Below, one piece after another: positions 11,101-42,061 of a DNA stretch of 42,243 nt. How positions within the stretch are numbered: position 1 is the first letter of the stretch; the number at the start of each line of letters is the position of its first letter. The notes beneath the pieces are model-generated. The model ran no database searches and was not told the DNA's origin. It saw only the letters and a program-made list of their open reading frames with translations. Source of the stretch: a virus (Duplodnaviria > Heunggongvirae > Uroviricota > Caudoviricetes); IMG/VR virus record IMGVR_UViG_3300029976_000110. One strand, given 5' to 3'. The position numbers and the translations under genes are program-made.

Positions 11101-14100
11101 ATTAAAAGAACGTGAAACTAAAGTTAAGGAATATAATCAAGCTCATATTAACGAATGGATTGATAAATTTACTAATTTAAATTTAGATAGACATCATTTA
11201 AGACTCTTACATAGTAAAATGGGAGTATTAAAAAATGAAATAATTAAATCTATTGCTTCTAAGTTTATAATTCCTAATGAAACAGCTTTATCTAATTCTA
11301 TTCGCGATGCTATAACTTCTGGAGCATCAGATGATGTTATTAGAAGTATTATCCAACAAAGTAAAGAGGATAAATATAAAAATTTATATGGTGAAATGCC
11401 TTTTATCGATCCTATTCTATTCAATCGATTATATAGAAAATTAGGAGAAGATAGAGGTAATGAAACTGATTATTTAACTTAGGGCGATATATATACTCTT
11501 TTTAATCAATGGTTAACTGAAAATCCAGATAATCAAGAATTATTAAGTGATTCTGATAATTTAGGAACAAATTACGGAACTGTTTATAATAATTTTCTAA
11601 ATTACTTATACAGTTTAATGCAGTATAATCCTACTCAAGCAGAAAATAATGGGATTACACCATAGTTATCTGGAGAAACTGAAGAACATGATTTATCTAG
11701 AGGTTTTCTTGATTATTACTCTCAAGTTTTAGATCCTAAAGAAGGCGTTTCTTTGTAGGATAAGTTTCTAAAAAATGCAGTAGCATACGCTATAAATAGA
11801 CACGTTTCTGAAATAAATGGTACAGAAATTAATGGAGAAGAATCTGCTCCTGTTAATACTCCAGGATTTTTAATTGATAATTTAGTTAACTCTGAAACAG
11901 ATTCAACATTTGGAAATATTATTGATACTATAAATGAAATTAGAGAAGAAATCAATAATAACTCTGATATTAAGACTTTTAATAAATTAGAATCTGTTAA
12001 ATATGTCAAAAACCCAGCATTGTCTGTTGTAAATCAAATTAATGATTCTGAAAATTTCTTAGAATCTATTTATGAACTATTTCAACAAGGATCAGATCAA
12101 TTTACATTATCTGAAGAATAGATGGAATAGTTGAAACAGATAATGCAAGATATGAATATTGCTAAAGCGTTCATAAAAGCAGCATCTGTTGAAGGAAGTT
12201 TATCTGAACCAATTGGACATAATAAATTCTTAAATGATTATGTTAAAAGACACAGTGATATATTTAAGAACTTTGAAGAACTTCCAGAATTAGATTCTGA
12301 TACAGCATATTTATTAATTAATGAATTAGATAGTTATCAACAAGAAATACAAAGTTGGATAGCTTTATCTAATAGAAATAAAGGAAATCAATTAAAATCT
12401 TTCATAGAAGCTAAATAGGCTTTATAGACTGCTAATATTGATTTGTATAGAAAAAATAGAGAATCATTTAAAATAACTCCAGAAGTTGACTTACTTGAAG
12501 GTTTTGAAGATCTTGAATTAGATAATTCTCTGCAATCACTTATTTTAGTTGAGAGCTTATTACATAATAACTATTTAAAAGCTATAAGTAAAGGATTAAC
12601 AGTTGAACAAATTCTTGATAAACTAATTCCAGATTTATGTAATATTAGTCGCTTAAACTATTAGGAACATACTAATTTGGATGAAAGTCTAAAGTATGAA
12701 ACATATTCTGATTATGATAAATTAATGCAGATAATAGCCAATTTTGCTATTGATGATAAATCTTTTTATTCTAAATTACTAAATATTATTAATAATAATG
12801 AAGGATTTGTACCGATTGCTATTCAAGAACAAGTACTCAAATTAGTATAGGCACAAGGTTCTAATTTAGATCTTATTAATAGGGCTTTACGTTATATTAA
12901 TTCTAAGTTAGAAATAAAACTTCCTATATTACCAAATACAACTATAGTTACTGGTGTAGCAGGTGCAGGAAAATCCTATATTATATCTAATTCAGTGGAT
13001 AATGATAGTACTACTTGGATAAGTGGTCCAACTTAGAATTAGATTGATAAATTATCAGAGAATCTTTCCAAAGCTAAACAAATAACTAAGGAAGATTTAT
13101 TAAAATTAGCATTGGGTTCTGATTATGCTGCTTTTTAGGATGAAATAGCTAAAATTGGAACGTCTAAGTCTGGAAAATATTTTAAATTAGTTGATGGCCT
13201 TAAAAATTACAAGACACTTGAATTAAAAGAAGGAGTTACTTTTAATAAAATTGATAACCCTCCTAAGAAACTGGTTATAGATGAAGCTTCTCATTTTAGT
13301 ACTGGAGAAATGTTAGCTATATCTAATTGGGCTGAATAGAATGGTATTCATGTTATTGCCATAGCAGGTAGTACACAGAATGGTTATTCTAAAAATAAAA
13401 TAGAAAATATAACTTCAGAAACAGTATTAGCTTGGAGAACTCCAAACTTATTCATGTCTTTACGTACAAATAATGTTTAGAAAACTCAAAATTTAAAAAT
13501 TCTTGATACTATTATAAATGAACTTGATAAAATAGATAATGAAACATAGTCAGAACAAGCTATGTCTGCATTGGAATCTACAGGAATTACTCTACATTAT
13601 TATAATGGAGATATTTTTGCAGGAGAGCAAATAGTATCTAAATTAGGAGATGTTTCTAAATTAAAGGGAACTGTAGCTTTTATAGGATCTGAATCTTCAG
13701 AAAACTATAAAAGGTTACAAGAGGCAGGATTAAAACCAGAATTGATTGATCCTTTAAATGTACAGGGATAGGAATATGATTATGTCATTGTTGATAAGAA
13801 TTGGGACTTCGGAGATAATCATTTTAGTAAATTCAAGGGATTAATGGATTTATATACTATGGTTAGCCGTAGTAAAAAGGGAACTATTATTATTAAAAAT
13901 AATTTACCTACTTGGATTGTATCTAAAGAAGATAATTATACTTCTGAAGCAAATACAATTACTAAAGCTCTTCCTATATTTAGAAAAGCTACAATGGAGG
14001 AATTAAATTCAGTTAAATTCCCTGATGAAGTAACTGTTGAAGCTCCAAGCGCAGAAAAACCAAAAGACATACCAAAAACTACAGAAACTTTAAAAGAAGA

Positions 14101-17041
14101 AACAAAACCTTTAGAGGATAATAAAGCCTTAAATGATCCAGAAAAAACTAAAGCTACATAGTAGGAGCAAATACATGATGCAATTGCTATATCTGGAAAT
14201 AGTTTATTAGAAAAATATCCTATAAGAGTTTATGGTAATGTATCTTTTGCAGGTATTGAAATAAATGACACGGATGAAAATAGGGTTCATATTTGGACAA
14301 ACAAAAATAGTTCATATTCTGATTTAGGTATATTTATTGATGAAAATACTACAGTTATAGATCCTAAAGAGCAAGAGAATTATGTAAAATTATTATTGCA
14401 AATTAAATGCTTATTCCATTACGGAACTGATTATTATGATAAATGCGATTCAATAATTACCAGACGATTTAGTAAAGAAAATTTTGATAATGCAAAATTT
14501 TTCATTAAAATTGAAGAAGCTAACGATAGTAACTTATTAGTAGGTTTAACTGATCTTGAAAACGAAAAGAGAGCTATTGGAAATGGAAGAATCGTCAAAT
14601 TAATTGCGAGATTTAATGATAATAATGGAAATTCATTTGATGTATCTTTAGGTGCTTTTGCTAATCCAGAAACTTGGAGAAAAGGATTAAATACCATCAA
14701 AACTTCACTAAAACAACAAATTGATGAAGGGAATACTGAGTTACAAGACTATTATAATAACTTAGATTCTTTAGTTGATCAATATGAAACTTGGGTTAAT
14801 AATAATACAACTTCTGATTAGGAAATTGAAATTGACAAACCAAACTTCAGTCAACTAACTTCTTTAGTTTAGAAAGATTAGTTGTTAAGACTAGAAAAAA
14901 TTGATCCTAGCTCACACTTTAGCCCATATAAATATGCATCTCATTATTCTGTTGATTCTCCAGTATATATTATAACTGATGATGAATTGCCATTTATAGA
15001 TAAATCATTAAAAGGAAAAGCAGTTATATTTTCTTCTTCTAATATATTCTTATCTCCAACATCATTAAAAGACATCTATATATAGGAAAAATAGTCTGAA
15101 TCAACCTCTGGAAGTGTTAGAATGTTGATTTTAGATAATTTAGGTGTTTCATTCCGTTCTTTATATGAAGAAAAGTATAAAGGTATATATACTACTGCTG
15201 TAGGAAATAGTAAATCCTTTGTTCCTTTTAGAACAGAAGATACTGGAGCACGAATGTATATAGGTGCATGGAATTTCCGAGCTAATTTGAAGAATTTTAA
15301 TGCTAGAGTTAGAGCATTTAAGCAAACATCTGGATTATCTAATGACGACATACATATTATATGTTAGTTAGATAACCAATATTATAATGAAATTCGGGAA
15401 AAAGAAGGATAGGTATTAAAAAATGGTAATAAATACTTAGATGAAGCAACTTATCGGCAACGAGTAAGTTAGGTACATCCTAATGATGTTGAAGCCTTAA
15501 AGAAAATATGGGATTTCAATGATAGTTTAGCTACTCAAGTAAGAGAATTTAGATTGGGTTATAATAAGCCTAATGGAGCATATATACGCAAACTAACACA
15601 TCTTGAATCTGGAGGTTTTTACAAAGATATTAATAATACAAATGGTATGTATATTAATCCAGAAATAGCAGAATTTTATGAATAGGTATTGGATAATTTA
15701 TTTACAAACATCTATGATAAGATTATTACTATTAATAAAGAACCAAATGTATTATTAGACAAATCTAAACTTGAAAAAGGTTGGTATAAAATAGCAGAAG
15801 ATTTTAGTAAAATTACTATTCCAGTTAATGATGAAGATGATGCTTCTCTTACATTTAATGGAACAGATGCGTTAAGTGCAATAACTTTCTTAACTATAAA
15901 AATAGGGAAATATCTTAATTATGAGCGACTATTTCCTGATTTTATGTAGAAAATTGCTGAGAGAAAACCAGAATCTAAGTGGTGTCGTTTACAATATAAT
16001 GGTGAAGAATTAGATTGGATTTCAATTATTCCAGATGATTCTAATCTTCCCGAAGGTATAACTATTGAACTGGCTGATCCCTTAACTGAATGGGATGAAA
16101 GTTCTGCAGAGGTAGGTGTCAAGCCTTATTCAACTGAAAATGGAGTTAATAAAGGTTATTTTGATGCAAAAATAACCAATTTATTTAGTTTAATGTTTCA
16201 TGGATTAATTGACTTAAAAACTCCTAATGATTTTACAAAGGGAGATATTAGAGCTACTGATGCTGCCTTTAAATTTGGTTTTATGTCTGACCCTTTAATT
16301 GCAAAAATACCACAAGAAGGAAAGAGCACTTTTGCAGGAACAGTCACCTCTAATAAATTCTATGGAACAGATGCAGTATGTGGATTACCTATTATAGGTG
16401 CTTATTTAAAACCTAAATCTACTGAAAGTTCTGAAGAAACAACTGAAAGTTCTGAAGAAACTACAATAAATCCATTATAGAAAGTTGTTGAGAAATATTA
16501 GCAACTAACTGGAATTACAAGTAATATAAATCTAGATCTATTTGAAAATGAAGAAGAAGTTAAAGATTTCTATATTGAAGAAGTTAGAAATAATCTAAAA
16601 GCTGCATTTTCTAATTAGAAGATAGATCCAAATTAGATTATTTATTATAATGATGCATTTACTAAACTAAATTCTATTATTCCTAATATTTCAGATATTG
16701 AATTTGTAAATGGTAATTTTATTATTACTACATCTGATGAAAGAACTTTTAGTATGATATTAAATAATAAAAAATTAGATATTTAGGAACAAAAGAAAGA
16801 ACAAGAAGAATCAACTTTCAAAACAGATGTTAATAACTGGCTTGAACAAAATATATTTGTAGATACAGAGGAATCTGAAAAGCAAAGTATTTTAGAACTT
16901 TTAAATACATTATACGAGCAGGCAGGAAATAATATTGGAACTAAGACTTCTAATTATATTATTAATCAATTAAAAGAAAAGTTATCTGGTTTAGGATTTG
17001 ACAATTTAGATGAACTAGACAATTTTAGAATAAACTGTTAA
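8171..17041 (+). CDS. giant crAss-like virion protein A, ~2956 aa, with an SF1 helicase domain (TAG=Gln)
   Basis: Starts MK[Q]NDWIVAKLNNPDY; 13 track ORFs from 9344 to 16193 share this frame; contains GVAGAGKS (Walker A, ~12953), LVIDEASH (Walker B, ~13271), QG[Q]EYDYV and YTMVSRSK; ends FRINC-TAA. Confidence 0.85.
16421..16462 (+). repeat. 21-bp in-frame tandem duplication (TESSEET x2)
   Basis: actgaaagttctgaagaaaca followed directly by actgaaagttctgaagaaact. Confidence 0.9.
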
Positions 17042-17042
17042 T

Positions 17043-20000
17043 ATGAATAAATGTTTATTACCAAATTATAAAGAATCTGATTACTCAAAAGTAAGTTTAA
17101 AATTATAGTCAACTGATAATCTAGATTCTTTAGTAAAATAGATTTTGGACGGATTGGAGAAGCAAAAAAGCTTCTCCATAAGTCCAGAAATGTCAGTTAA
17201 TAGAGAAGAATTTAATGATAGCGTAAATCTTTTATTAGATAAGATTATACCCGATGCCGAAAAAGTTTATACCGGGTCTAATATATCTGAATTAAGAGAT
17301 ATACTCTATAATCATTTAACTGAGTTTAAGTATACTCCAGTAGATGAGGTTATTATGGCTGTAATATCTGGAACAGATTTAGTTACAGAAGGAGAACGAC
17401 AAGAAGTTAAGTTTTCATAGCTTGTAAAGGATATTCAAGGTACGTCAAATAGCTTTATTTATAATACTATGAGATAGAATTTTTCTAAAGATATGAAAAA
17501 CAGAACTATTATAAGTGATAATGGTTTAGTTACTTCCTATGAAGATATGAATGAATCTTTAGAAGCCTACTTATCTGAACAATATTTAATTTTAAAGAAA
17601 TATTTAACTTCTATTGATGAAAATAATCAGCTTTCTTCCATTATGGGAAATAGTTTATTTATTAATCATCAATTTAATCCTGCTTCTTCAGCTACCTTAC
17701 AGGCAATGTACAATCAAATAGTTAAATTAAAAAAGAATAAAACTTTTGATGATACTATTAAGCAAGATTGGGAAAATAAAATGGTGTCTAATTCTCGTGA
17801 AATATCATTTTATGATGCAGTTGATGCATATATGAAAATTGTCTATTTTGATGATTATTTATCTACAGTATTAGGTGGATATATTAAAATAGATCATAAA
17901 ATGGACACTCCTATTGAAGTTGATGAATATGGTAAAAATAAATATAAATATTCCTTTGTTTCTGGAAATATTAATGCTGTAAAAACTTGGGGAGTAGAAG
18001 AAAGAAATGCATTATCTGAAATGAGTAAATTCTCAAAAGTTTTAATTGAGAGTATTCCTCTTTATGATTTTAATTCTAAAGTACAGAGCTATGGATATAT
18101 GCAAGTAAAAGACTTTGTTAATACAATGTCTAAATTGTTTGATTTAATTCCTTAGCTTACAAGTAATTCAAATATTCTACATAATGCTTTAATAAACTTT
18201 AAAAACAGTCCTACTGCATCTATTTAGACAGTATTTGATGTAATCTTCCGTAATCAAGATATGCTTTCAACTCTAATATCAAAAGGATTTGATGAAAATT
18301 ACTTAAATTATTTATATTCAATATATAAAACAGTATTTAGTGGCAATAATTCCTGGTTAACTATTGAAAATAAATATAAATTAAAGCATGGAATCCCTAA
18401 TACATATTCTATAGTTGATACTATATTAGGAGAAATGAACGCAAATGTTTCAGCCAACTATGTAGAAACAGTGTATGAAAAGGGAGATACTATAACTAGA
18501 ATTAGGACAAAATATAATATTAACAGAACTATTTATCAAGTTATAGATAATGCTAATGAAATAATCAATCTTTCTACTTCCTTAAAATAGGACTTATTAG
18601 ACAAATATCAAATTTCTGGAGATTCTGATTATTATATTACGGTAGGATCTAATACCATTTTAATTAGTCCTAAAGGTTCTAATAATATATTAACTAAACC
18701 CTCTCAATCTTCAAATTCTATTGATATTTCTATTAATGGTTTAAATGATATTGCTAATTTTATCCCAGATATAAGCAAGGCCACAATAAGACAAAGAATA
18801 TTTAAAGGGTAGGCATCAGACGATGAAGTAAAATTACTTTCGGTACTTAAATTCATAGATGATATGTTAGGAACTAATTTTTCCAAAGATGAGCAAGGAT
18901 TATATTCTTTTTATTTATTGCAAAAATTCAATAAGAACAATCTAAGGGAAATGATTGCATCTGCATCAAGAGGTTTATTAGTTACAAAAATATATCATGG
19001 ATTTGAAACTACACTATAGGATGGAAAGAAATACTATAGAAATGAGTTAATTAAATTTTTACAAGAACATCAAACTGAATATATTAATAATAATTTAGCT
19101 AATTTACAGAATCGCAGAAATTATTTCAGAGATATAGAAAATGAAGGAAAGCATTTAATTGTAATTTCTGGAAATGAGAATTGGTTAACTGATTACTCTA
19201 AAGTACAAGCTATTTTACGAAATGAAACTTCACAATCTACAATTAATAGTTTAACAGGTAAAAAGTTTCCTAATTATACTCCTTCATTTTTAGGTTCTTC
19301 CTTATGGTATCAAATATAGCAAGCAGCTTTAACACATTCTTGTACCGAAAATCTATTATTTACTAAAAACATTGATAAAATCAAAACTGTTGGAATTAAT
19401 TCTGAAGTTAGAACACAATTTGGAGTTAGAAAGCAAATAAAGGATTTAAATAATGGAGAATTATTATATGACTCTATTGTTAATAAATTTATAATTCCAT
19501 CTTTAGAGGGTAAATATTATTCTCAACCTACGACATACTCTGATAAAACTAAATTTATTATATATGAGATAGCTTTAAGAGAGTTACTTGAGAATAAAGA
19601 TATTTATGATTAGAATATAGAAGAGTATGTTGAACAAAAAATAATGTCAACAATAGGACAGTTCTACAAGCAATCTTGGAATGAGATGTTATAGGATTAT
19701 ATTAAATTAATATCCTATTTAAATAACTCTGGCATTGAAACAGGTATAGGAATTACTCAGAGTGTAGTAAATTATGAAACTGTTACATCTATTAATACTC
19801 AACAACTTAATAATTGGTTAAAAACTCTTTCTGAAGAAAAATTGTTAAATTATGCAGAACAATATAATAAAAATAATCCTTCAGATCATTTAACATTATA
19901 TTCTGAAACTCACTACAGAGTTGGAAAAAATGGATTAACCTTAAATGAACTTACTAATTATTATGCTAATGTTCTATATGCACATCAGAATGTGTTACAT

Positions 20001-23000
20001 TAGAGATTATATCAAGAGAAAATAAATTTAGCTAATAATTTACTTAAATATAGAGTAAAATTTAAATATAATTCAAATCCAGATAGTACTGATGCAATTA
20101 CTCTTACTGCTAAAAGAGTATTAGGAACAGAAGTAAAAGATTGGTTATCTGGCAGCTATCTTGCTGTAGGTAGAATTACTAATATAGCCACGGGTGAATC
20201 AAGATTGATTTCATACGGATAGGTTTAGTTAGAAGAAAATGAAGTATTTGAATTAAATCCTATACTTAATTCATATTTTATGATTGATAATTTAGTAGGA
20301 AACAATTTAAGATATACTCTTACTGGTTCTGAACTTAATCATAAAATTAAATCTCTAAAGAAACTTAATTTAAATAAGGAATTTAAAAATTATATTCCAA
20401 GAATTAGAGAATTAATTGGAGATACTTCTAATTTAACATTTTATGACATACAAACTGCTATTTCTAATATGCAGGAAATAACTCCAGAAGATTCTGAGAT
20501 TATATCTTTATTTAATAAATTAATTTATAATTAGGAAAATTTAGGATAGAACGCTCAATTTAAGCGTAATGTTATAATTCCAGGTACAATTCGACCCTAC
20601 ACACCTAAATGTATTAATGGAATGTCTTCAAAAATGAATATTGCTGTGGTAAAGGATGTTGCAGCAAATATTTTTAATTTTGATGGAATTGCTACTACAG
20701 AGGATGCACACGATGGCTCTGCTTGGATTAATCCTATTGCTTCTTTATTAGAAAACTGGTCTCTACAAAGTTCAGAAGTTGGAACAGTAAAAAAACCTAT
20801 ACACCATTGGATGAATAATAAATATGGAACAGCAACTTTGTTAAAATATGCTGTTGATACTATGACTAATCAATGGATGAGATAGGCAGAAGGCAACAAA
20901 AATGGTATAGTAATTAGAAATCTAATAAAGAAAATGCTCGGAGTTAGGTGGAATGGCACTATTGATTTAATAAATAGTTGTCAATTTAGAGTAAAATCTA
21001 ATATAGACTTTAAAACTGACATTCTTGCAGGTAAATCTTTATATTATAAGGATGGCTTAAAACATTATCAAATATAGGATTTTGGTTTTGAAAATGGTGC
21101 TTATTATACAGTAGAAGCAGAAGTTAATATGGTTGGAGAAGTTCAATCTGAGCCTATAAAAGTATTCCATTATTTTGATGATGAGGGAAATCACTATACT
21201 GAATTTTCTGAAGGATTACATACTATAGATTCACTTTATGAATTACATACTGCTTTAGGAGGTTTGTTCTCAGAAAGTGAAGCTGATGGAACTTTACAAT
21301 ATTCCGAAGCATCAAATGAAGCTGTTGCTAGATTTTGTAATTATGTTGCTCTTAAAAAAGAGAGTACAAATATTAAAACTGATCCTATAGATCAAGATCA
21401 TTATTATTAGCCTTTAAAGGATAAAATGATACACATGGTTGCCAATAATAGTGCAGTCAAGAACGGGGCAGGAAATATTAATCAATCTAGACGTTTATAT
21501 AACAATGAAGAATTGTCTTATATGACAATTGGAACTGAATATTATGGAGTTCAATTAGATGCAGACCATACTGCGGATGAAGCAATGTTGACTGAGTTTT
21601 CACAGGTTATATCTTCTCTTGATTCTGGAGGACAATTACATGAGTATGTAAATGAAATTTATAAAGTTCTTGGATAGACAGCTTTATCTCTTTCACAAGT
21701 AGAACTAGATGCAGTTGCTGCATTTGAAGATAGTGGAAATAAAACTCATTTATATGAAGTAATAGGACGAACTATCGTTGACAACGTATTATCAAAAAAT
21801 TCTAATTCTGCAAGTCTAACTGAAAGTATATTGAACAATATTAAGAAAGAATTTGATTTACAAGCAGACCATATATTTGATAAAGCTAAAATACCTTTCT
21901 CTGATCCAAATATATATTCTTAGATTCTTCCTACTTTTGTTTCTATTATTAATAAAAAGTCTATTAAAAGACAATTCCCTGGATCTGGAACAGTTATGGT
22001 TCCAGGATATGATTTATCAATGATATATGAAATCAATGGGGAAACTTATTAGTATGAAGATATTTTAAAACGAGCTTATCAATGGGCGGTTTAGAATAAT
22101 ATAACTTCTACTAGTTAGGATTTATATACTCGAAATAATGAAATTGTGACTGCTTATTTAGATAGTATATAGGCTGAACAACCAAATATTGAAATCAATG
22201 ATATTATGCCTACAGATAATGTTTATTCTATCTATATAGATAGGGATGGAACTTAGATTAAAAAGCATAAATCATTAAATGAAATATTTGATTATTATAA
22301 TTATACTAATCCTACTTTTAATTTATTTGGAGTAGATGAAAATAATGTTGAATTTGAAGTATCTGATAATATATTAAATCTATATATTAAAGGGCATAAA
22401 GAATTAGGATCATTTTAGTTACTCTATAATGGAGATAATTATGTTATAGAATTTAAACATTCTTCAGATATTAGTCCAGAATAGTTACAAATTCTTTCTG
22501 ATGCATTAATTGCAGCAATTCCCTATAATGCTAAAGTATCATTATCTAATATTAGTACTTCGGATAATTTTGCTCTATGGTCTAGTATTTCAGCTGATAT
22601 GATAGACACTTCTAATTCTGAAAATATTTTATTAGATGAAACTGAAGTATCTATTCCAGTAAAATAGAAAACTTGGGGAAAAACAATTTTATCTAAAGAT
22701 GTAACTGTTCCAAGAAATCTTGCTCCAGCTAAAATATCTTATATTGTTAATGGAAAAAGAATGAGCATTTATCAACATTGGAGATTAAAGGGTCTATTCT
22801 TATCTTTACAACAATTACAAAATTCTGATATTCAAAATAAGGAAGAAGAAGAAAAGCGAATAAGAGAATATTATAATCCTCAAAAGGCTTTTGAAGAAAT
22901 TGCCAATAATCAATATATCTCAGAGGAAGAAACTAGAGCTGCCATAGCTGAACAAAGAGAACCAAATGCTATATAGGTAACTGATATATAGAATATACCT

Positions 23001-26000
23001 GCTGAAATGATTGTTTCAAATCTATTTGCTTCTAAATTTGGATTAAAACCAAATACTAGTATGGCAGATATAACCGAAAAATCTTTTATTAAAAGCAATA
23101 ATATAAGATCTTCCTCTAATTTTGATATAGTGTTTACTGGAGATACTGATTCTTATATTTCCTTTAAACCTTTATTTAATAATAGTTAGTGTAAAAAAAC
23201 TAGTTGGAGAAAAAATATAAGACCCTTTACAGAATATCCATCTGATGTAACCGATAAAAATATAGTTAATACAATTTATGCTGTTTCTGATAGTAATGTT
23301 AGATTGTTTGAAATAGGTAGAGAAATTAAAGCAACTAATGTTAAAATGGAGCGCGATGGAGATGGAAAAGCTTAGTTCTATGAAACAAATGAATCTGGAG
23401 AAATTATTTCTGAAAATGGAGCAAAGAAAAAAGCTAAAGGAACTTATAAACTCGCTAATGATGGTTCTATTATTCAAGTAATAGAATTTGTTACAAAATA
23501 TAGAGTTAAAGAGAAAGGTAAACGTTCAGTAGCATACGAAATTAATAAGGATGCTATCAAACGAGTATTTTTAAAGAGAAAATATTCTGAAGAGGAATTA
23601 TTATTAAGGAATCCAGACGGTTCTATACAAGTAGATGATCAAGGATTTCCCAAAAAGCTAACTGAAGAGTAGAAGTTTAACACCGAAGTAAATAATTTTA
23701 TTGGTAATTTATTAGGTAAAATTTATTCTAGTTCTAATCATGACGGAGTATAGTTAAATAATCAAATGAGTATGATTTCTGGAAATATTCTTAGTTCTTC
23801 TGCTTGGAATAGCTTTACTAGTTAGTTGTAGTATAATTCTAACTTATATAATTATCTTTAGAATTTAAAACCTCTTTTAACTGCTGGCAAAGAAAATTAC
23901 ACTGTTAATAAAAGACGAATGTCTCAAGCATTAACTAAATATAATGAAGATACAGCTAAAGAAAGATTTGTTTCTTTTTTGAAATCAAAATACTTTACTG
24001 TGGCTCGTATTCCGGCACAAACTTTACAATCTTTCATGTAGATGAAAGCTGTCGGGTTTACTCAAGTGCCAAACGCACAATGTTTTGTATCACATTGGCA
24101 GACATGGCTACAAGGGAGCGACTATAAACCTAAAAATCTTCCTTGCAGCTTAATTAAATAAAAAATCTTATTGTAGTCGTTAAACTTCGTGAATTGTCGG
24201 GAAATTCCTTAGAGCTTTTTCTACTAAACTAATTTAGTAATAAGTTAGTGGTGATAATTAACTATTATCAGTATAGTAACAAGGGAAAATATTGGATAAT
24301 CCGCAGCTAAATGTCCTAGATAAAATTTATGTCAAATAATCTGTAAGTTGACAAATTATTTATTAAATTTGTAGGATGAAAGTTCACAGACTATCCCATA
24401 AGGGAGTAGGAACTTTTATTTAATATCAAACTAAAAATATTAGATAAATGGTAAGAAGAATTTATTACTCAGCAAAAGCTGATTCCGAAGTGCGAAGCAT
24501 CTAGCAATAGATGAAGATATAGTCGGGCTTATATTGAAAGATATAAGAATAACTGGATATAGATAAGGCTTACATAATGGGTCTTAACTTTGATAACAAC
24601 GGTAAATATATTGGATGGAGTAATTTATTTGATTATTCTTCAATTGAAGCACTTTAGGCTTCAGAATATTTACCAATGCCAGAAGGAAAGCGATATAATT
24701 TTGATAAAAATGGAGTTGATATATCTACTTATGTTGATCAAATTATACAAGCTGAACAAAATAATGATAAGGTATCTCGTATAAAACTATATGTAGAACT
24801 TTTAAAGGCTATTAAAGATACTGATAAAGTTTCTTATAATGGTCAAAATAATGAAAATTTATAGCAGATATTAAAAAATATTAATCTACATCAATCAACT
24901 AAATTACCTTTATCTTTAACTGAAGGAGCTTAGAAGAATTTTATTTCTTCTCATATATAGAATACGATTCAAGATCTTCGTAATATGGTTAAGGCTTATG
25001 CTCCTATAGATATGGAGATATTTCGAGATGCTTCTTAGTTAAGTCCTAAAACTTCTGAAGCGAATCAATTAACATTATTAAATCCTGCTACCAAATTTAT
25101 AATGTAGTTTTAGAATATAACAGGTAAGAATGTAATTGGTATTGCGGCCAACGGAGAAAAAGGATCTTTTATGTGGCATTATTATCTAAATGATATGATG
25201 AAGCATCCAGAGAAGTATAATATTGAGAATGGGATGTTTGAATTTAAAACAAATAGAATATTAGGCAGGTCTTTAGGATCTCCTACTGCTCAAACTATTA
25301 CAATGTTACCAGACGTTAGGGTAGCAGCGGATTGGGCACTCAAACATCCTGATAAACCAATATATCGACTTACAGGTAATTTAGCAGTTGACTTAATGAT
25401 CAGTTAGGTGCTATCTGCGGCCACCGATTCTCGTATGCAGCAATAATTATTTTGTTATTTCAGAAATTAGTATTATATTTGTATATAAATTAAAATTATA
25501 TAGGTATGAATAAAATTTCTGAAGAAACTATTGGAAAAATTAAAGATCTTTATGATCAAGGCTTTAGCAATTAAAATGGCTAAAAGAAAAATGGAATATA
25601 GATTGTTCCAAACATAAGAACTCATCTAATTTCACTATCTATTTAAAAGAAGCCACTAGACTTACATTTGAACAATTAATTTTTCCATACATGCTGCCAT
25701 CTATGTATTATAAGCTAAAGTACATAGACACACTACAAGCATAGTCGGTGTAAAACTACGTGAACTCAGGAAAAACCCTTAGAACTTTAACTACCAAGCA
25801 TAAGTAGTAATACATTATGTGGCTTAATTAACTATTAAGGTATGGTAAAAAGATTAAAGATTGGGCAATCCTGATCCAAGCTTCCTAATGGAGGAAGAAG
25901 GAGCAACGACTATCGAAAACACATCTAAACAAGATGAAAGTGAGTAGAGTAGGGAAACTGAAGTGCGTAGACTTGTTTTTACAAGTATGATATAGTCTGA

Positions 26001-27943
26001 ACTTACATGAAAGTGTAAGATTAACACAATTGAATGCTAAAGAGCTTATTCTTGCAAAAGTAAATGCAGGAACTAAACTCGCTAAAATGTATCTATTCAT
26101 GATTACACTGGGCTTTAATATAAAAGACATTGTTTCTTTTATGACTAGCCCAATTGCAACTTTTATAGATACTATTACTGATACAAATATATTTAATAAT
26201 GAAGAAATTAGATTAGATTAGGCTTATAAATTAGCCTCTGGTGATTTTTCCTCATTAACGAACAATAATTTAATAGATATAATACAAGGAGTTTATCCAG
26301 ACATAGATGTTAATTCAATTAAACACGGAATTATTCCAGATGAAGTAGATGTGAATCAGTTTGATGAAGTAACTGCTGACTAGATTAATTTAATTCAAGA
26401 AATTAAAGCATTAATGAATTTTGATCCTAATTTATCGGAAGTAAAACAGGATATTGAAGAATTTAGGCACATTATGAATGGGGCTAATGAATTTAGTAAT
26501 TATGCTCGAGTACTAGGTATTAATTAGGGAATTAAAACATCTAAAGCAGATTTATAGCAACATATTCAAACTTTACAAAGATTAGTTACTGATGCAGCCA
26601 AAGCAAAAGGATTTAAAGAGTCTGATATTCCTAAAGAATTTAGAAGATTTGATTTAATTTCTTTTGTAAAAAATACAGAATATGAACCTGGAAAATTTTA
26701 TAAAGATGAATTAATAAAATATTATAATACAATTAAACAATGTATTAATATTTTTGATCACATTGACAAAATTGATTAGTTTAGAGCTTTATTTTAGATT
26801 GAAGCCGCAGTATTATAGTTTGATAAAAATATATCTGTTAAAACAAAAATATATGATACTATCTACAATATCTTAAAAGATAGTAAAAATGATTATATTC
26901 AAACTAATTACTTAGATAGATTAGTTAAATCTATTGACAATGATTTAATTATAGGATATTTTCAAAGTCGAAATATTCAAATTCCTGTACAATAGGGTGT
27001 TACTTTATTTAAAAGAGATGGAACACCAATTATAACTAATAGTGATGAATTATTACAATTAGATTCCATTGAATCAATTGCTTCATTCAAAAATCTAATG
27101 GATTCAGTAATTATTCCTAAATTAAAACAAGGAATATATTATAGATGGAATGAAAATTCTGTAGAAGAAGTATCTGATAATAAATTAACTTCTAATAATT
27201 TTGTACAAGGATTAATAAAAGATAGAGATGGAGATATTCCATTATATAAATGTGATTTAAATATGTTGGCAATAGAAGATTCAGCTTTTAATTAGCTAAC
27301 CTATTCTAATTATATTAGAGGTTTACAAAGCCTATAGAATATAAAAGTAACTGATAAATTATCTTTAGCTGATATGTTTATTTTATATAATTTGGTTGTT
27401 AATAAAAATCAATATGGATCTAATCGAATGACAACAATTTTAGATGGTCTTTTAAAAGAAGATAATATTTTGTCAATTATTAAAGATTATATAAATTTTG
27501 TTGGAGATTTAGATTACTTTGGAGAAGCAGCTAATGAGCCAGGATCTACTATTATAACTATTACGGCAAATATTCCTGGAGAAAACCCTGTTAATTTCTC
27601 ATTTGATTATCGAGATAATTTAATGTTTGCTGCTTCAACAGTAAATACTCTTAAAAATCAAAAAGATCCTAGTATTATTTTATTAAATCCCGATGGAAGT
27701 AAAACTTTTTATATTAAAAAAGGAGCATATACTTCATTTGATGTATATTCAAATACAGGAGACACTGAAGAACAAATAAATAAAGCTAACAATATTAAAA
27801 GACATTTTACTTTAGGTAATTATATAAAATCTAAACAAGATTCTACTCTAGAAAGTTTTAATAATTTAGATGAAAATACTCTTAAAATAATTTCACAATT
27901 AATAAAAGAGTAGATACTAAATATTTCATATCATTGTAAATAA
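17043..27943 (+). CDS. giant two-barrel (double-psi beta-barrel) virion RNA polymerase, ~3288 aa; join(17043..24125,24556..25428,26033..27943), TAG=Gln
   Basis: Splicing restores WQTWLQGSDY^DIDKAY (catalytic DxDxD, compare DFDID of the phi14:2 gp66-type RNAP) and LSAATD^NAKELILAKVN. Other conserved-looking blocks: QFKRNVIIPGT, DAHDGSAWINP, KRQFPGSGTVMVP, VARIPAQTLQSF. Exon frames agree with the track ORFs. Confidence 0.88.
24126..24555 (+). mobile_element. group I self-splicing intron 1 (430 nt, no ORF) in the RNA polymerase catalytic motif
   Basis: Exon ends in U and intron ends in G. P1 is cgactat (24119-25) with gtagtcg (24173-79), giving a U-G pair at the splice site. Core elements: P aattgtcgggaa (24192), Q aatccgcagc (24298), R gttcacagacta (24382), S aagatatagtc (24514). 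Confidence 0.92.
25451..25481 (+). promoter_or_regulatory. intron-internal Bacteroidota sigma-A-type promoter for the endonuclease ORF
   Basis: TTTG (25451-54), 19-nt spacer, TATATTTG (25474-81), 24 nt upstream of ATG 25506. Confidence 0.65.
25506..25753 (+). pseudogene. internally deleted LAGLIDADG-type homing endonuclease remnant
   Basis: N-terminal 22 codons MNKISEETIGKIKDLYDQGFSN-TAA, then in another frame QLKWLKEKWNIDCSKHKNSSNFTIYLKEATRLTFEQLIFPYMLPSMYYKLKYIDTLQA[Q]SV-TAA. LIxPYxxPSMxYKL resembles the C-terminus of LAGLIDADG_2-family enzymes. The LAGLIDADG helices themselves are missing. Confidence 0.7.
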
Positions 27944-30258
27944 TGAGATGTTATTATGATTTTTTAATAGGAGATAATCAACAAGTTTCCATCCCCATTG
28001 ATAGTGAGGATGGAAACTTGATTTTAAACGATGAATTATTAACATCATTAGAAAATAATCCAGAGTTACGTCAACAAATCTCCGATTTATTGTATGAAGA
28101 ATTAAATAAATCTAAATCTGCAAAATCTATTACATTTAATGATTTAGTTAAAAAAGGAGCATTAATAGCTAATACTAATCTTGAATTTTTAAAAAGTGAA
28201 TATCCAAATGTTTTTCCAGAAAATGCAAAAGCAGAAGTACTTCTTGTTGAAAAACTAAAAGAATTTGGAACTCCTATTTCTGGTAGGATATTAAATTCAA
28301 AAGGAAAAGAAATATTTGTTATTGATGGTTCTGATAGAGATATATATAAATTAGCTAACTATTTAAAACTAAGAGAACAATACGAGATTGGAGCTGCTAA
28401 TTTTGAAGATAAAACAGGAATTATTAAGAAAATATTGAAAGATACTAAGTTTAAAGACTTATCCTCTTTATTAATAGATTTTAATAATAACGATAGTAAG
28501 TATTTAAATAAGTTTATTAAGAATTAGAGTTATTATAAAATCTTATATGATATATCAAGACAAGTATTAAATAAACCATCTTTAAGAAGCTTTAATAATC
28601 CTATATTAGATAATATCTATATTTATTTACAAAAACATGATGCTTGGAAGTTTAAAGATAATTCTTTTATAACTGATGGATCTAAGTTAAATATTGATTT
28701 TTTATATAATATATTAAAACAGTATAGCTCTGATTATAAGGATATAGATCTTAAAACTTTTAAAGCACAACTAAAGAATAAAGATTTCGTTACTTCCTTA
28801 TTTAATATGTTTCATGAATTAAATTCCGCATTTAATTATGAATTTATTAAAATTAAAGATGATGATATTTATGCTAAATCAGCTCCTTAGACAGTCTTTG
28901 AATAGTATGGTTGGACGTATGACACCATACAATCATTTGATTTTTAGGAATCTTATCGTGGATATTAGATTTATGCTAAAAATGATAAAGGAATAACTAA
29001 ATATTATACAACAAAAGAATCTCTTAATCAAAATAGTTTTGCAACTAAATCATTTGAGACTATTGATGAAATAAAAGTTTATATTGACGATAAAGTAAAT
29101 GAAACTAAGTTAGCTAAACATAGTTTACTAGATTTTAAGTTTGGATTAAATGATAATACTATAACAACTAAAGATAAATTAATTGTTGGAAGTATAATTG
29201 GAACATTAGATATTCCTCTTAAAAAAGTTAGAGCATTAACTCTATTTCCAATTAATGAATAGCAATTATTAGAGGATAAAGCTGTAAAGAGTGTAAAAGA
29301 CTTTGCTGACGTAGTTAATTCTTGGAACATTGAAACTTCTTTGAAAAATGAAATAATCTCTGAAATTAATACTCCAGAAAAAATAACAATATTCTTATAT
29401 AAAGCTCAAGAAGAATTTAAGGGCAGAGATCGTAATGATTCAGAAAAAATGCGATTAATCCTTAGATAGATTCAAGAAGCAGGAACTAAATATTACTATA
29501 TTGATGAAGAAATTAGTCAAGGAAAATATAGAATAATTCCAACAGAACCAAACTCTTTAGAAAATTATCATAAAGAAGGTAAGAATTTACCTACTATTAA
29601 ATTTTTAAATGTGTTAGCACAAACTCTTGAAACACAAATTCCTGGAATTAAAGTTAATATTGAAACTTCTAATAACATAAAAGAATTATTCGGAGATATT
29701 GATACTAATACTACAAGAGCTTTTATCCGTGATGGACAAATTTATTTAAATAGTACTTTGTGTAAAGCTACGGATTTATTACATGAATATACTCATTTAA
29801 TCCTTGGAATGTTAAGAGCTGATGAAGCTACACGATCTAATTATGAAAGTCTCTTGCTAAGAACAATGTCTTCTAAGACTGCAGAAGTAACTAACGCATT
29901 AAATAAAGTATTAGAAGCCTACCCAAATATAAGTCAAATGGACGCATACGAGGAAGTGTTTGCTAATTTATTTAGCAGGTATCTTGTTGATAATAATATT
30001 AAAATATTTTAGAATAATGAATCTGAATTAAAGTCATTAACTGAAACAATATTTGGACAAACTATTGACACTCCAGAGGATATGAGAGATTTCTATACAG
30101 GTAGTATTAAATCAATATTTTCGAGATTTAATTAGGATATTGCTACACTGTTACAACAAAAAAATCTTAGTTGGGAGGATAGTAAAACATATCGTTAGTT
30201 ATCTAATTATATTTCAGATTAGATTAGTAAAGGAAAAATCAAAGAAAATTGTATATGA
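27943..30258 (+). CDS. giant-operon protein C, 771 aa, with a zincin-like metalloprotease (HExxH) domain (TAG=Gln)
   Basis: TAATG overlap with the RNAP stop; track ORFs 27943 and 29611 are in frame; RAFIRDGQIYLN...LLHEYTHL (29782-29796)...YEEVFA; ends KENCI-TGA. Confidence 0.82.
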
Positions 30259-33200
30259 TAAAATGTACTTATAAAATAGGGAATAAAACATTTAATAATT
30301 ATACTGAATTACTGAATGCTTTACAAGATCTTCCAGAATTAAGTAATTTTAATGATGTAGTATATAGTAAATAGCTTAAGCAACAAACTTAGATAGATTT
30401 AATAGATAAAATTAAACATGATTATTCTATTAAAGTTAATTCTACTTCTTTAGGTTTTTTAAATGGAGAGCCTGCTACAGAAAGTGGAATGAATATTCTT
30501 CAATACATTGATAGTGGTTAGTTTATTGTTAATGGACATAGACCAGTTACTCCTTATAATGAAGAGGATTATATTAAAGAAAAGACTGAGAAACTAAAAG
30601 AATCTGGGATGTCTGAAGAAGAAGCAATTAATCAAGTACAAGAAGAACTGAAACACAATCAGAAAATTGCAGAAGATGCCAAGTTATTTCATCAAGTAAT
30701 TAATGATCCAAGTATTGCTGATCCCAATTTTACACAAGAAGAGTTTGTAAATAGATATTCTTCGTTATTTTCAGTATTTGGAAATAGTGAATCAATTCTA
30801 TCTAATTTATATAACAGGTTAAAGCAAATATATATTGAATATAAAGGTAATATTCCAAATTCAATTGTTAAAAGAAATGTCAATTTAACTGCAAAAACTA
30901 AAGATGGTGTTGAAATCTTAGGTCATATTGATCAGTTAATTATTGGTGAAGATGGATCTTTACATTTATTCTTATTTAAGACTACTAGCGATTCTAGAAA
31001 GGATTGGGTGGGAGTAAAACGAGAAAAATACGATTTTTAGTTGTCATTTTTAAAATAGATGTTAAAGGCTAATGGTATTGATGTTAGTAATATAACTCTA
31101 TCTATCATTCCAATTTGGATGCAATATAATTCAGATTATTCTGATCTTACTGGTGTACAAGTAAATAATCCAGATGAAAGGAGTTCTTCTAAAAAGAATC
31201 AATATGTGTTTGAAAAGTATGATAAATATACTCGAATAACTATTCCTAATGTCAGTAAAATGACTAAAGTACCTTCTACTACTTTATCTAAAGCTGACGA
31301 AATATTTGATGCAGTATTTCCAGATTTAAATGTAAAAGAAACTGGTATTTCTGAATCTGCAAGAATTTGGATTGATAAAGCACCAAGTGCCGATCCGAAT
31401 GGAACAGCTTAGTTAGTAATTAAGGAAGTTAATACTGATCACCGTTATGACGTAATCATTAATGAAACAACTTATAATATAAAATCTGGAAAATCTAAAA
31501 ACGTAAACTCAGAAATTATTAAATTAGTTTCTGAACATATATCTGAATTAGAAGATAATAAAGGATATTCAATTCAAAAACTTAAAGATGCTATAAAATC
31601 TAGTTATAAAAAAGGATTTTTAGATCTTTCTTCAATTAAAGGATTAAAAGGTTCAGAAGTTAAATTAAGGGGATTATTATACAAGTATTTACACTATACT
31701 AAAGATGATTTAGATAATAAAATCTATGAATGGGTATTAGAAGATTAGTTAGTTGATAGTAATATATTGATTTTTAGAAATAAAAAATCTAATGTATTAG
31801 ATTTTATTGATTTAACTGCATTTAATATAAATGCTAATGCTCATTTAACTAAAGGAGAGGGTATTTTAGGTGCTTATGAATATCAAGATTCTGTTGGTTT
31901 AAAGGCAGATTATGGTAATATTGAGGCTGTAAGAACAATGGTATTGATTAATGAATTAATTCCAAATTTAAAAGATGTTGCATTAGGTACAATGCATATA
32001 TTAAGTTCTACTAGTAGTACTAATTATCGTTCTTATAATATAGGTGATTTTAATCAAAAATATTTTAGAAAAATTATTGATACTGTTAGTCATGAAAATT
32101 CTGATTTAAGTATCAGTAATAATTTTGGATCTATTGAATTGGAAAATCCAATTGATAGTATTCTTTAGAGTTTATTATCAATCTTAGATGGTAAAAACAG
32201 TTCTCAAAAAGAGCGTATAATGGATCTAGGATTTGAAGAACTGACCGAATTAGAACCAGAAGAACATGAAAATATTGTAAATGCTTTATATAATATTATA
32301 TAGAACATATACAATGAATATCCAAATTTACAAGACCCAGAAGAAGTAAAAAATCTGTTATATGATTCTACTACTTCTTAGTCTGATATAGCTAAACTAC
32401 TTGAATTAATAACTCGAATTTATACTTCTTATACAGGAGAAAGTCCTGTTTATTTAACAGAATTTAGTAAAATAGAAAGAAATGCTTTTACAGCTACAAC
32501 AGTATCAGACTCTAATGTAAAAACTATAGTTGATAATTTATAGATTACCCACGATGCTATAGCAAGAGAGTTCTTAGAGAAATATGATCAAATTAATGAT
32601 CCCATAATGACTTATTATCAAGAAATAGGTTATACTTCTGCTAATAATATGCTTTTAGGAAATCAAGCATCTCAATTTAAAAATCTATTTGAAAGAGATC
32701 TTGATACTAACTAGAATACAATGATATTTAAGAATCCTTACGATAGGACTAATAATTTAACTGAATCAGAACGTAAACTTCTAAAAAAAGTATTATATAA
32801 TATTGCTTATATACATAGTAATGGAAATTTACCTTTCTTCTCTGGAGAAGATTCTAAAATCGAAGCATATATTAAATCTAATCCTCAATATTTATGGGTT
32901 CCTTTAATACGAGCTTCTTCAGCAACAGCATTACAAAGTAAAGATGCTTGGAAAGCTAAATTTAAAAATGGTTACAAGCGTTTTAAAAGAGCTATTGATC
33001 GTTATGATGAATTTATAAATGGAGTTACGGAAGAAGAGCGTAAAGAAATTTTATCGCAAAGCGATAACTTTTATATGATGTAGGCTCATAATCCTTTTGA
33101 TTTAAGTATTCCTAATAGTAGAAATACCAATATTATTGAGGAAAAACGCCGAAATATGATTGAGAAGTACGGTCCAGAGTTTTTTGAAACTAATGTAGAA

Positions 33201-34814
33201 AATATTATGAAAGAGTTTTTAGTTCAACAAATTGGTACATACCAATTTAATAAGTTATTGGTTGGAACTAAAGCTTTTATGTTACAATTAGCATTAAGAG
33301 GAGAAGAATCTGGAAATTCTAAAGTAATGTAGGATGAACTTGAATGGCTTCAAAATTATCTAAGAGTAAATGTTTTTAAAGAGTCTATTATGTCTAAGGA
33401 TGAATAGAAGATTATAGGAACATTAGTACCTGTAAGAAAAATAGTTTCTCATATGTTAATTGGTGGTAATATTGTAGGTGCATTTCGTGATGTATTTGAA
33501 GGTGTACAGCAGAACTTTATTCGTTCAGTATTGCAATATCAAACAGATTTAAAACCAAAATATATTACTCAAGCTTTAGCCTATGTTTCATCTCATGGAA
33601 CATCTAATGCAATGTCTGTAAATCTATTAAGTAAATTATGTTTGATGTATCGTCTTTCTAATACTGATGTTGGTAGAATTGCAGAACGTGCAAAAACAGG
33701 TAGAAATGGTTTACTGAACATTGAAAACGGATTATATTTCACACTTCGAGGTCCAGACTTTCTTAATCGAATGACATTATTCGTTGCTCGTTGTATGCAA
33801 GATGGGGTTTGGGATGCTTATAGTCTTGATGATAATGGAAAATTAAAATATGACTGGAAGAAAGATGCTAGATTTACTTAGTATGCATTAGGAAATAATA
33901 ATCACCCAGACTATAATAAACAAAGAGCTTTATATCTTTCCAAAATTAGGGAGTATAATCAAGAACATCCTAATCCAGAAGAGAAAATTCCTTTTGATGG
34001 AGACCTTCCAGCACCTTATTCTGATAGAGAAATATTAAATATTAGAAATTTAGGTGATAATATATATGGTTCTTATGATAAAAGTAAGAAAGCTATGATG
34101 GAAAACTATTCATGGTGTATGATATTTGGTATGTTTACAACTTGGATGAATGGTATAGTTAATAATTACTTTATGAAATCATAGCGTAATGGAGCATTTG
34201 GTTATAAACGAGTTTAGGCTCACGATACTCAAGGAAGGGCACTTTATTTTGATAGTTTAAATAATATAACTACCGAAGTAACTAATACCCCAGTATATGA
34301 AGATGAGCCTATTGTAGTTTAGGGTATTTTCCCAACTTTAAAGACTTTATATAAAATTCTAAGGTCTGAGGATAATATACCAGAAGGATTGAAACGTATT
34401 AAAGAATATTTAAAAGCAGATTAGCATGAACGAGCTAATATGTTAAAGCTCAGTTCAGATGCTTTAATGACATTGTTATACTGGTTATTATTCTCTCAAC
34501 TCTTAGATCCTGCTTATAAAAATTATAAGAAGAAAATGATAGATAATCCTGTTGTTGCTAATGCATTGGTTGAAGTGTTATATAAATCTACTTCTAGATC
34601 TCATGATTAGTTCAAAGGACCTTTAAATATCATAGAATTTCTTGGAACTAATATGAATCCGCCTATTTATTCACAGCCTACACAATTAATGGTAGATATG
34701 GGAAAATCTATTTTAGGTGATAAAGAATGGTCGTATACACTAATAAATACTAATGGTATTACACGCTCATTTAAAGATACTGGTAAAGCATATATAAAAT
34801 CCAAATAGCAATGA
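30255..34814 (+). CDS. giant crAss-like virion protein D, ~1519 aa, with a degenerate PD-(D/E)xK-like domain (TAG=Gln)
   Basis: ATGA overlap with the upstream stop; MIKCTYKIG...; track ORFs 30609, 31059, 31767, 32721 and 33453 share the frame; GHIDQLIIGEDGSLHLFLFKT at ~30921-30983; ends KSK[Q]Q-TGA. Confidence 0.82.
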
Positions 34815-35477: not shown

Positions 35478-36035
35478 TTATAATACATATTGATATTTTT
35501 CTTTAATGTGTTTATTTTCTTCCATTAAAAATTTTACAGATTTCGTTAAATCTTGTACTTTTTCTTTTAGTTGGGTGTGCTCTTGCTTAATTTTAATATT
35601 TTCTTGTTTTAATTCATCTATTATATTTGACTATTTCTCTAGTATTAACGTAGTACGCTCATAGATATTAATCTATGTTTGTAATGCGTGAATTGAATAA
35701 TACATATACTCTGTTATCTTAGATATTTGTTCTTTTAAATCACATTTAGTTCCATATTGTTCTAAATTCTAAATTTTAGCGCAAATTGAACCAATTTCAA
35801 ATAACTTAAAATTATTCCAAACTTCTAATACTTTTGGATTATTATAGAACCATTCTGTCTAATACTTGTAGTCTTTTAATAACTTATGTAAAGTAGTTTC
35901 GTTCTACTTCGTTCCTTCCATTGTGTCTAAAACTTCAAAACTCGGATTAGTAATTTTATAAGCTTTAATACGCTATTTAAGATTATCTGTAAATCCGATT
36001 TTCAAGTAATCTCCAGATTCAATTAGATATAGCAT
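35478..36035 (-). CDS. T5orf172/MUG113-type GIY-YIG-like domain protein with a C-terminal coiled coil, 185 aa (TAG=Gln)
   Basis: MLYLIESGDYLKIGFTDNLK[Q]RIKAYKITNPSFEVLDTMEGTK[Q]NETTLHKLLKDYKY[Q]TEWF...; 6 in-frame TAG; ends with TAA; missed by the ORF track. Confidence 0.78.
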
Positions 36036-36977: not shown

Positions 36978-37295
36978 TTAATCAGATTTCTCATTTAAAA
37001 CTTCAAATTTTAATTGATTTCCATCACAGATGACTGAAATACATTTATCATTTGAATTAAATACAATATACTTTCTATCACAAACTTTAAATTCTATTCC
37101 TTCACAGGTCTCTAAAATTAACTCAGAAAGTAAAAATCCATTTATAGGAGATTGTATAACAATACTCTCATTTATTCCGCTTGATATTGCAAAGATAACA
37201 TTATTAATTCCTGCTTTGAAATACATTAGTCCAGAATTAAAATCAGAATTTACGTGCTTTAACGGATTTCCAACTGTCTTATTCTCTCCTGACAT
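36978..37295 (-). CDS. hypothetical protein, 105 aa
   Basis: Open frame from ATG to TAA in a co-directional gene run, overlapping the upstream gene end; no recognisable motif. Confidence 0.6.
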   Translation of the reverse strand: MSGENKTVGNPLKHVNSDFNSGLMYFKAGINNVIFAISSGINESIVIQSPINGFLLSELILETCEGIEFKVCDRKYIVFNSNDKCISVICDGNQLKFEVLNEKSD

Positions 37296-37792: not shown

Positions 37793-37812
37793 ATTTGATT
37801 AAACTATCTACG

Positions 37813-38502: not shown

Positions 38503-38517
38503 TTTTTATTCAAAATT

Positions 38518-38811: not shown

Positions 38812-38846
38812 AAGTATAAATTTTTCCAGTTTTAGAAGAACCTAGT

Positions 38847-39935: not shown

Positions 39936-39940
39936 AGCAA

Positions 39941-40825: not shown

Positions 40826-40843
40826 AATTTTTATTGTTTATAG

Positions 40844-42054: not shown

Positions 42055-42061
42055 ATCTTCT

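Follow-up and report, generated by a model that had tools for sequence, protein, structure and literature searches.

Cysteines (Cys) placed at the facing ends of giant cargo proteins follow a rule that holds across the order Crassvirales, far beyond chance. The starting point is a 42,243-nucleotide stretch of DNA from a crAss-like gut phage (Caudoviricetes; IMG/VR record IMGVR_UViG_3300029976_000110), called the window below, in which four giant genes, A, B, C and D, follow one another on the plus strand. An earlier note on the window, made from its letters alone, had observed a Cys at every end that faces a neighbour and none at the two outer ends, and had proposed that the four products are linked again in gene order into one chain that threads through the tail. 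Head-to-tail pairing of neighbours is now well supported in silico. Reversible disulfides between the proteins, which would turn them into an ordered cargo chain, are the best mechanism and, on a modest balance, a probable one, because the rule is conserved, the Cys pair is gained where a gene is naturally split, it is absent where genes are fused, and two facing Cys come into contact in a structure model. Literature searches on cysteine or disulfides in crAss cargo or RNA polymerase led only to the crAss001 atlas and the DEV paper, and no description of the terminal-Cys rule or of a chain link was found in them.

Cysteines at the facing ends

The window itself gives the simplest form of the rule. 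A ends INC* and B starts MNKC, B ends YHCK* and C starts MRC, C ends ENCI* and D starts MIKC; the outer ends, MKQNDW of A and KSKQQ* of D, have no Cys. All six junction-facing Cys codons lie where the earlier note had placed them (Table 1), and all of them are TGT. The couplings also agree with that reading: a 1-nt gap separates A from B, B and C are joined by TAATG and C and D by ATGA, the start overlapping the stop at the last two. Cys was said to be scarce elsewhere in these proteins, and it is. A to D hold 24 Cys in 8534 amino acids (aa; 0.28%), and 6 of the 24 fall within the 24 junction-facing terminal positions, leaving 18 in about 8500 aa (0.21%) outside the termini. Five upstream proteins of the virion block have 0 Cys in 2488 aa. 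The proteome-wide mean in N4-like phages is 0.865% Cys (PMC11445570). The chance of finding a Cys in all six of the 4-residue junction-facing windows is 4e-13 to 2e-12.

Are these terminal residues conserved among relatives? They are kept down to 22-31% identity. In MT835470.1, which uses the standard code, the junctions read QNCKLNI*/MAC, RINC*/MSC and KENC*/MAC. Only two Cys occur in its C, both of them terminal; its D has one, and its A, whose frame is truncated at the end of the locus, has one in the 2447 aa counted from the first ATG. The rule is likewise kept in MT835492.1 and, at every visible junction, in two contigs of 167-171 kb and in the closest relative, locus L060. Every one of the 12 homologues of C found in databases (22-66% identity) carries a Cys as residue 3 or 4 and another as the last or second-last residue. 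For the D family, which would end the chain, a Cys stands at position 3-6 in 26 of 27 homologues and at the C-terminus in 0 of 27.

The rule extends to cultured phages. In crAss001, mass spectrometry detected gp47, gp49 and gp50 in the virion, and they were assigned to the cargo zone of the capsid (Bayfield et al. 2023, PMC10172136). Here gp47 (2341 aa) has its sole Cys 3 residues from the C-terminus, gp50 (2412 aa) has one internal Cys besides Cys5 and Cys2404, and in gp49 (1349 aa) the sole Cys is residue 5; the termini of gp43-46 are free of Cys. In phi14:2 the corresponding series is gp67-gp66-gp65 (locus tags gp078, gp077 and gp076), of which gp66 is the virion RNA polymerase with a solved structure (Drobysheva et al., preprint 10.1101/2020.03.07.982082). 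The sole Cys of gp078 is its last residue, the solved polymerase gp077 (2180 aa) has only Cys3 and Cys2179, and gp076 has only Cys3. The same arrangement is found in six Steigviridae relatives (down to 54% identity) and in four lineages at 31-34% identity.

The gp49-type proteins, which are numerous, allow the rule to be counted. Among 120 gp49 homologues of at least 73% identity, 119 have the N-terminal Cys and 117 have no further Cys. Among 130 stand-alone gp49-type representatives, clustered at 50% identity, a Cys occurs at positions 2-7 in 122 and in the last 10 residues in 0. When 29 diverse gp49 homologues are aligned, Cys5 is among only 18 invariant columns. As a separate observation, polymerases of the crAss001-type lineages have one internal Cys in much the same place, about 100-150 residues before the DFDxD motif (Cys1334 in gp50, Cys1364 in the middle protein of locus L061 and Cys1402 in locus L054).

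Gene boundaries and a docked pair

Does the Cys pair belong to the gene boundary? The earlier note had proposed to test whether natural splits and fusions gain or lose the two Cys together. In MT835492.1 gene A is split in two, which would make its chain one of five members, and a Cys is present on both new ends: the first half ends ..NNFEACKVIA*, with its only Cys in about 1540 aa, and the second starts MQSNC. At the aligned site the unsplit A of the window reads ..ESFK-ITPE-VDLL.. (BLASTP), with no Cys. A lone Cys at the homologous site of the unsplit A was considered and rejected; the nearest, Cys1490, is 50 residues off and unaligned. Fusions give the reverse picture. We took 11 fused giants of 3030-4674 aa that end in a gp49-type module, with the fusion point extrapolated; 9 of the 11 lack any Cys within 60 residues of this point. 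A fusion of 4295 aa has its sole Cys at position 6. The fused forms keep the N-terminal Cys in 8 of 11 cases, and their C-terminal end is Cys-free. The presence of the pair therefore follows the gene boundary: Cys stand at the ends made by a split, and most fusion points have none nearby.

Do the facing ends meet? The earlier note had suggested modelling the C-terminal and N-terminal tails together, and for one facing pair this brought the two Cys into contact. Residues 564-775 of the C homologue and residues 1-200 of the D homologue of L060 were docked with family alignments supplied; the two proteins are encoded by adjacent genes on one contig and are 66% (C) and 80% (D) identical to those of the window. 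The docking score is 0.82, against 0.00 for the best of 3 controls. Of 80 solved complexes 58 attained that mark, and of 110 mismatched pairs 2 did, counts that apply only approximately here because our own alignments were supplied. At least 63% of contacts are shared between the docking runs, and the predicted local distance difference test score (pLDDT) of the partner is at least 55. The contacts with the lowest expected error are 774-4 (the two Cys), 773-5, 772-6, 771-7 and 770-8, which is an antiparallel register; the expected error of the modelled contact between Cys774 of the C homologue and Cys4 of the D homologue is 0.9 A. In this model the tail of C pairs antiparallel with the N-terminal strand of D, and the interface takes in the HExxH residues 618, 619 and 622, the edge strands 594-602 and the helix 635-647 (homologue numbering). 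A monomer AlphaFold2 model of the window's own C has low confidence in both tails, as is expected of segments that need a partner.

How the ends may be joined

How would such pairs work in the phage? A, B, the zincin-like C and D would be cargo, packed in the capsid and ejected into the host. They would have been purged of Cys like other ejected phage proteins, save one in each tail that faces a neighbour. Each C-terminal tail would dock as an antiparallel beta strand on the N-terminal strand of the next protein, so that the thiols meet, and when the particle leaves the reducing cytoplasm the Cys pair would oxidise to an inter-protein disulfide. The four products would then form one linear thread, A-B-C-D, of about 8500 residues, doing the job that fused polyproteins do in other crAss-like phages. 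Linked in this way, they would be packaged and ejected in a set order and stoichiometry, and in the next host, whose cytoplasm is reducing, the disulfides would open and the polymerase would be released.

Of what the earlier note proposed, the pairing of heads and tails in gene order is carried by the conservation, by the behaviour at splits and fusions and by the docked pair, while the covalent bond and the threading of one chain through the tail are what we infer, as are the timing of disulfide formation and the reduction that would follow threading. A general form of the reading can be put forward tentatively, with a chance we place slightly short of even: throughout Crassvirales the separate giants (a gp67-type protein, the RNA polymerase and a gp65-type protein; here A-B-C-D) may be joined by disulfides into one heteropolymer, ejected as a unit and freed by reduction, the disulfides taking the place of the peptide bonds in fused polyproteins.

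Published data on crAss001 bear on the chemistry of the link. Its cryo-EM structure contains inter-subunit disulfides in tail and portal-vertex proteins (PMC10172136). On reducing SDS-PAGE its virions give bands of about 150 and about 270 kDa (PMC6235969), which match the monomer masses of gp49 (154.5 kDa) and of gp47 and gp50 (262.5 and 276.9 kDa). Because the bands on this reducing gel are of monomer size, any link must be reducible, and irreversible ligation is unlikely. Thus among the chemistries that the earlier note offered, a reducible disulfide fits best, irreversible ligation is spoken against by the gel, and a metal clasp is conceivable at C/D. A phage thioredoxin was tried as an obligatory partner and rejected, being encoded in L060 and MT835492.1 and absent from crAss001, phi14:2 and MT835470.1. 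The thioredoxin genes lie at 12407-12721 (minus strand) in L060 and at 41860-42108 of MT835492.1 (locus L065), the latter matching Pfam PF00085 with E 1.4e-20; the equivalent position in the window would fall just past the window end.

Several points weigh against a disulfide chain and should be noticed. Oxidation would have to occur in the particle, because the cytoplasm in which it assembles is reducing and the gut lumen is anoxic, and the disulfides of crAss001 were seen in virions purified aerobically (PMC10172136). The docking covers one type of junction, in a homologue pair rather than in the proteins of the window; one of its three runs scored only 0.31; and the model yields contacts, not S-S geometry. 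In 2 of the 11 fusions a Cys does lie 60 residues or less from the extrapolated junction. The N-terminal Cys is missing in 8 of the 130 gp49-type representatives, several of which may have mis-called starts. Finally, the position of the C-terminal Cys varies between the very last residue and 9 residues before the end, and the geometry is thus not uniform.

Might the terminal Cys bind a metal instead? The docking of heads and tails would then be non-covalent, with the Cys as ligands of a zinc clasp, or of a cysteine switch that holds the zincin-like domain latent until ejection. The C/D junction suits such an idea, since HExxH residues lie inside the modelled interface (in a model without metal). 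An HExxH motif adjoins a junction in three lineages, in C of the window (157 residues from the C-terminus), in gp47 of crAss001 (residue 2157, 184 from the C-terminus) and in gp076 of phi14:2 (residue 245), and a His stands beside the Cys at one junction of the window (YHCK*). But A and B are without any HExxH, and A/B and B/C carry Cys pairs all the same, so that a metal clasp is not a general device; at the majority of junctions no HExxH is close by. Moreover, a zinc site needs more than two thiols, and the split of A in MT835492.1 gains its Cys pair without a metal motif nearby. Metal binding is held to be an unlikely account of the rule. Among the three lineages, the HExxH that adjoins the junction sits on different proteins and on different sides of the junction.

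Another possibility is that the terminal Cys are functional without joining neighbours. They might tie each protein to the portal, to the capsid interior or to cargo proteins 1 and 2, make homodimers, act as a packaging signal, or close an intramolecular clasp from N- to C-terminus. The bond between neighbours does rest on inference, several crAss001 structural proteins with Cys form disulfides (PMC10172136), and the middle proteins, having a Cys at both termini, could in principle cyclise. Against these uses, the first protein never has an N-terminal Cys and the last protein never has a C-terminal one. The split adds a Cys to both new ends together and the fusions have none, two facing Cys are in contact in the docking model, and the monomer model of C shows no sign that its two low-confidence tails pair with each other. 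We give these uses, too, a low probability.

Irreversible joining of the termini, which would yield a genuine polyprotein through a thioester or ligation-type reaction or an intein-like one, would draw on the C-terminal Asn-Cys that recurs at junctions (INC*, ENCI*, RINC*, KENC*) with a partner Cys near the facing N-terminus. The Asn is unconserved, however (YHCK*, EKC*, EACK*, LRCNS*), only 0-8 residues follow the C-terminal Cys, too few for intein halves, no His-Asn block is present, and the monomer-sized bands of crAss001 on the reducing gel speak against any such bond. A split intein in particular was rejected, with 0-8 residues after the C-terminal Cys, 2-5 before the N-terminal Cys and no His-Asn. 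We hold irreversible joining to be very improbable.

Least of all, with a probability we regard as negligible, could the pattern reflect chance or an effect on nucleic acid or translation. Such an effect might be read-through, a ribosomal hop from one Cys codon over the stop to the next, or a remnant of gene splitting, and the six TGT codons of the window, 14-16 nt apart across each junction, would speak for it. Against it, the gene of the first protein lies on the opposite strand in crAss001 and in loci L062 and L063 and its product still ends with its only Cys, MT835470.1 pairs TGC with TGT at spacings of up to 27 nt (11-27 nt in MT835470.1 and MT835492.1), the take-off codon is often not adjacent to the stop, and each downstream gene keeps its own ATG. 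Chance would give the pattern of the window by itself with a probability of about 1e-12. Partner genes on opposite strands mark the rule as a feature of proteins. A bypass of the T4 gene 60 type was rejected on the opposite-strand partner genes, the unmatched TGC/TGT and the distance of the take-off codon from the stop.

The gene block and its counterparts in other phages

What are the four proteins? The earlier note had labelled them helicase-, RNA polymerase-, protease- and nuclease-like. The polymerase label is borne out by the motif QGSDYDIDKAY of B, with DYDID at residue 2360, to be compared with DFDID at 1361 of phi14:2 gp077 and DFDVD at 1483 of crAss001 gp50; by this motif B is classed as a virion RNA polymerase. 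The helicase label of A has a Pfam match to AAA_30 (E 1.2e-5, 25.6 bits) slightly under the cut-off of 27. In C, H614, E615 and H618 of the HExxH are invariant in the family alignment, and a Foldseek search of its model against the PDB gave no match at E <= 0.001, the top rows being zinc metalloproteases at E 2e-3 and worse. For D the searches gave no support to a nuclease-like nature. They do point to a probable distant relation with the gp49 family of crAss001 (hhalign, Prob 84% and E 7.5e-6 over about 300 columns); C against the same family gives Prob 22% and E 9e-4.

Other searches returned little. BLASTP found no match between the proteins of the window and those of crAss001, PHROGs had no match for A-D or the upstream genes, and a PDB sequence search with C and D had none either. 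A scan of IMG/VR with C alone gave no relative, and in a phage collection tblastn with C and with B exon 1 as queries found only two unannotated faecal contigs. Judged by its motifs and distant similarities, the block of the window is a divergent form of the crAss-like RNA-polymerase cargo block, because B has the DYDID motif, A the weak AAA_30 match, C the HExxH and D the probable relation to gp49. That A-D are virion proteins is likely from synteny with crAss001 and phi14:2, in both of which mass spectrometry places the corresponding proteins in the virion. In locus L063, proteins matching the Pfam families crAss_CARGO2 (PF25712) and crAss_CARG1 (PF25725) adjoin the chain genes (18814-23233, minus strand), and the CARGO2-type protein there has no Cys.

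Table 1. Coordinates of the four giant genes of the window and of features within them
Feature	Coordinates	Strand	Description
Gene A	8171..17041	+	2956 aa (TAG=Gln); would be first chain member; SF1-helicase-like segment; ends INC*
Cys2956 codon TGT	17036..17038	+	Last residue of A
Gene B exon 1	17043..24125	+	Starts MNKC, Cys4 codon 17052-17054; ends after GSDY inside the catalytic motif
Group I intron 1 in B	24126..24555	+	430 nt; boundaries inferred from the intron-less homologue in L002
Gene B exon 2	24556..25428	+	DIDKAY ... SAATD
Group I intron 2 in B	25429..26032	+	604 nt
Gene B exon 3	26033..27943	+	Ends YHCK*, Cys3287 codon 27935-27937
Gene C	27943..30258	+	771 aa; MRC start (Cys3 codon 27949-27951), ENCI* end (Cys770 codon 30250-30252)
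HEYTH (HExxH) motif of C	29782..29796	+	Residues 614-618, 157 residues before the C-terminus
Gene D	30255..34814	+	1519 aa; would be last chain member; MIKC start (Cys4 codon 30264-30266), KSKQQ* end without Cys

The giant frames appear only when TAG is read as Gln; under table 11 the longest open reading frame (ORF) is at most 313 aa. In-frame TAG (Gln) codons run throughout the plus-strand virion and cargo block (276-34814), with 8-51 per gene, the exception being the gene at 2310-2888 with a single one. The minus-strand genes at 36978-42054 are mostly open under the standard code, and the ORF at 35478-36035, with 6 in-frame TAG, is an exception to this trend. No tRNA, and hence no suppressor tRNA, was found in the window.

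Alignment to an intron-less homologue resolves B into 3 exons and 2 group I introns, 3288 aa when spliced; its frame shifts at about 24.1 kb and about 25.4 kb. At the gathering threshold Rfam gave no match in the window. Below it, intron 1 matches RF00028 at 24122-24546 (33.6 bits, E 2.8e-6; gathering score 50) and intron 2 matches it at 25635-26019 (47.4 bits, E 2e-10), just below the gathering score. Intron 1 sits within the catalytic DYDID motif. The homologue of B in MT835492.1 has no introns, and that in MT835470.1 contains an insert whose 234-aa ORF holds 5 Cys (locus L001, 14497-15201). The first chain member has a conserved N-terminus, M-K/L-Q/N-NDWIVA (8171-8210 in the window, 7642-7680 in L002), which might lead the thread or serve as a packaging signal.

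Why does the rule matter? The packing, order and ejection of the giant cargo of crAss-like phages, RNA polymerase included, are openly unresolved (PMC10172136; PMC13434306). A sequence rule that spans the order predicts which end meets which, and it can be tested in cultured crAss001 and phi14:2. If the chain is real, it explains why the cargo block tolerates fusions and splits so freely, shows how one copy of each protein is delivered, and gives a trigger for release that needs no protease. The rule would then also aid annotation, as it marks the true protein ends in recoded, intron-bearing giant genes.

Comparison with systems already described places the window among several relatives. In phi14:2, as in the window, the virion giants include a polymerase with D[FY]DxD in the middle of the block, a zincin-like protein comes next and the same Cys rule applies. 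It differs in having three proteins instead of four, no helicase insert, the standard code and no introns, and its proteins have no similarity to those of the window that BLAST or phmmer could find. The phi14:2 gp66 was purified and crystallised alone in DTT/TCEP, and the report does not mention its cysteines (10.1101/2020.03.07.982082). CrAss001 shares the head-to-tail Cys rule, and its gp49 is probably a distant relative of D; unlike in the window, its gp47 gene is on the strand opposite to gp50 and gp49, and the C-terminal Cys of gp50 is 9 residues from the end. In the crAss001 paper the reported disulfides are confined to tail and portal-vertex proteins, and the order of cargo ejection is left open (PMC10172136).

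The N4-like phages eject a virion RNA polymerase of 3400-3500 aa together with proteins of the gp51/gp52 type (N4) or gp71-73 (DEV) (PMC11445570, PMC13434306), and the suppression of Cys in their ejected proteins has been ascribed to passage through the periplasm (PMC11445570). They resemble the window in a giant RNA polymerase packed in the capsid, in ejection through a short tail and in strong Cys suppression. Unlike in the window, their polymerase is one polypeptide made of N-terminal domain, core and C-terminal domain, has a different fold, and is essentially Cys-free, termini included.

Separate polypeptides are joined end-to-end by disulfides into long chains in mucins and in von Willebrand factor, which are secreted eukaryotic homopolymers with Cys-rich terminal domains, made in an oxidising compartment. 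The likeness to the window is one of analogy only, the proteins being unrelated in sequence and context.

The paper on phi14:2 notes a self-inhibited polymerase, with its activation unexplained, and calls the fused crAss-like polyproteins, in which the three proteins form one chain, 'likely cleaved' (Drobysheva et al., 10.1101/2020.03.07.982082). These polyproteins contain the same modules as the window in the same order. The difference lies in the link, which in them is a peptide bond, so that release would need proteolysis, not reduction.

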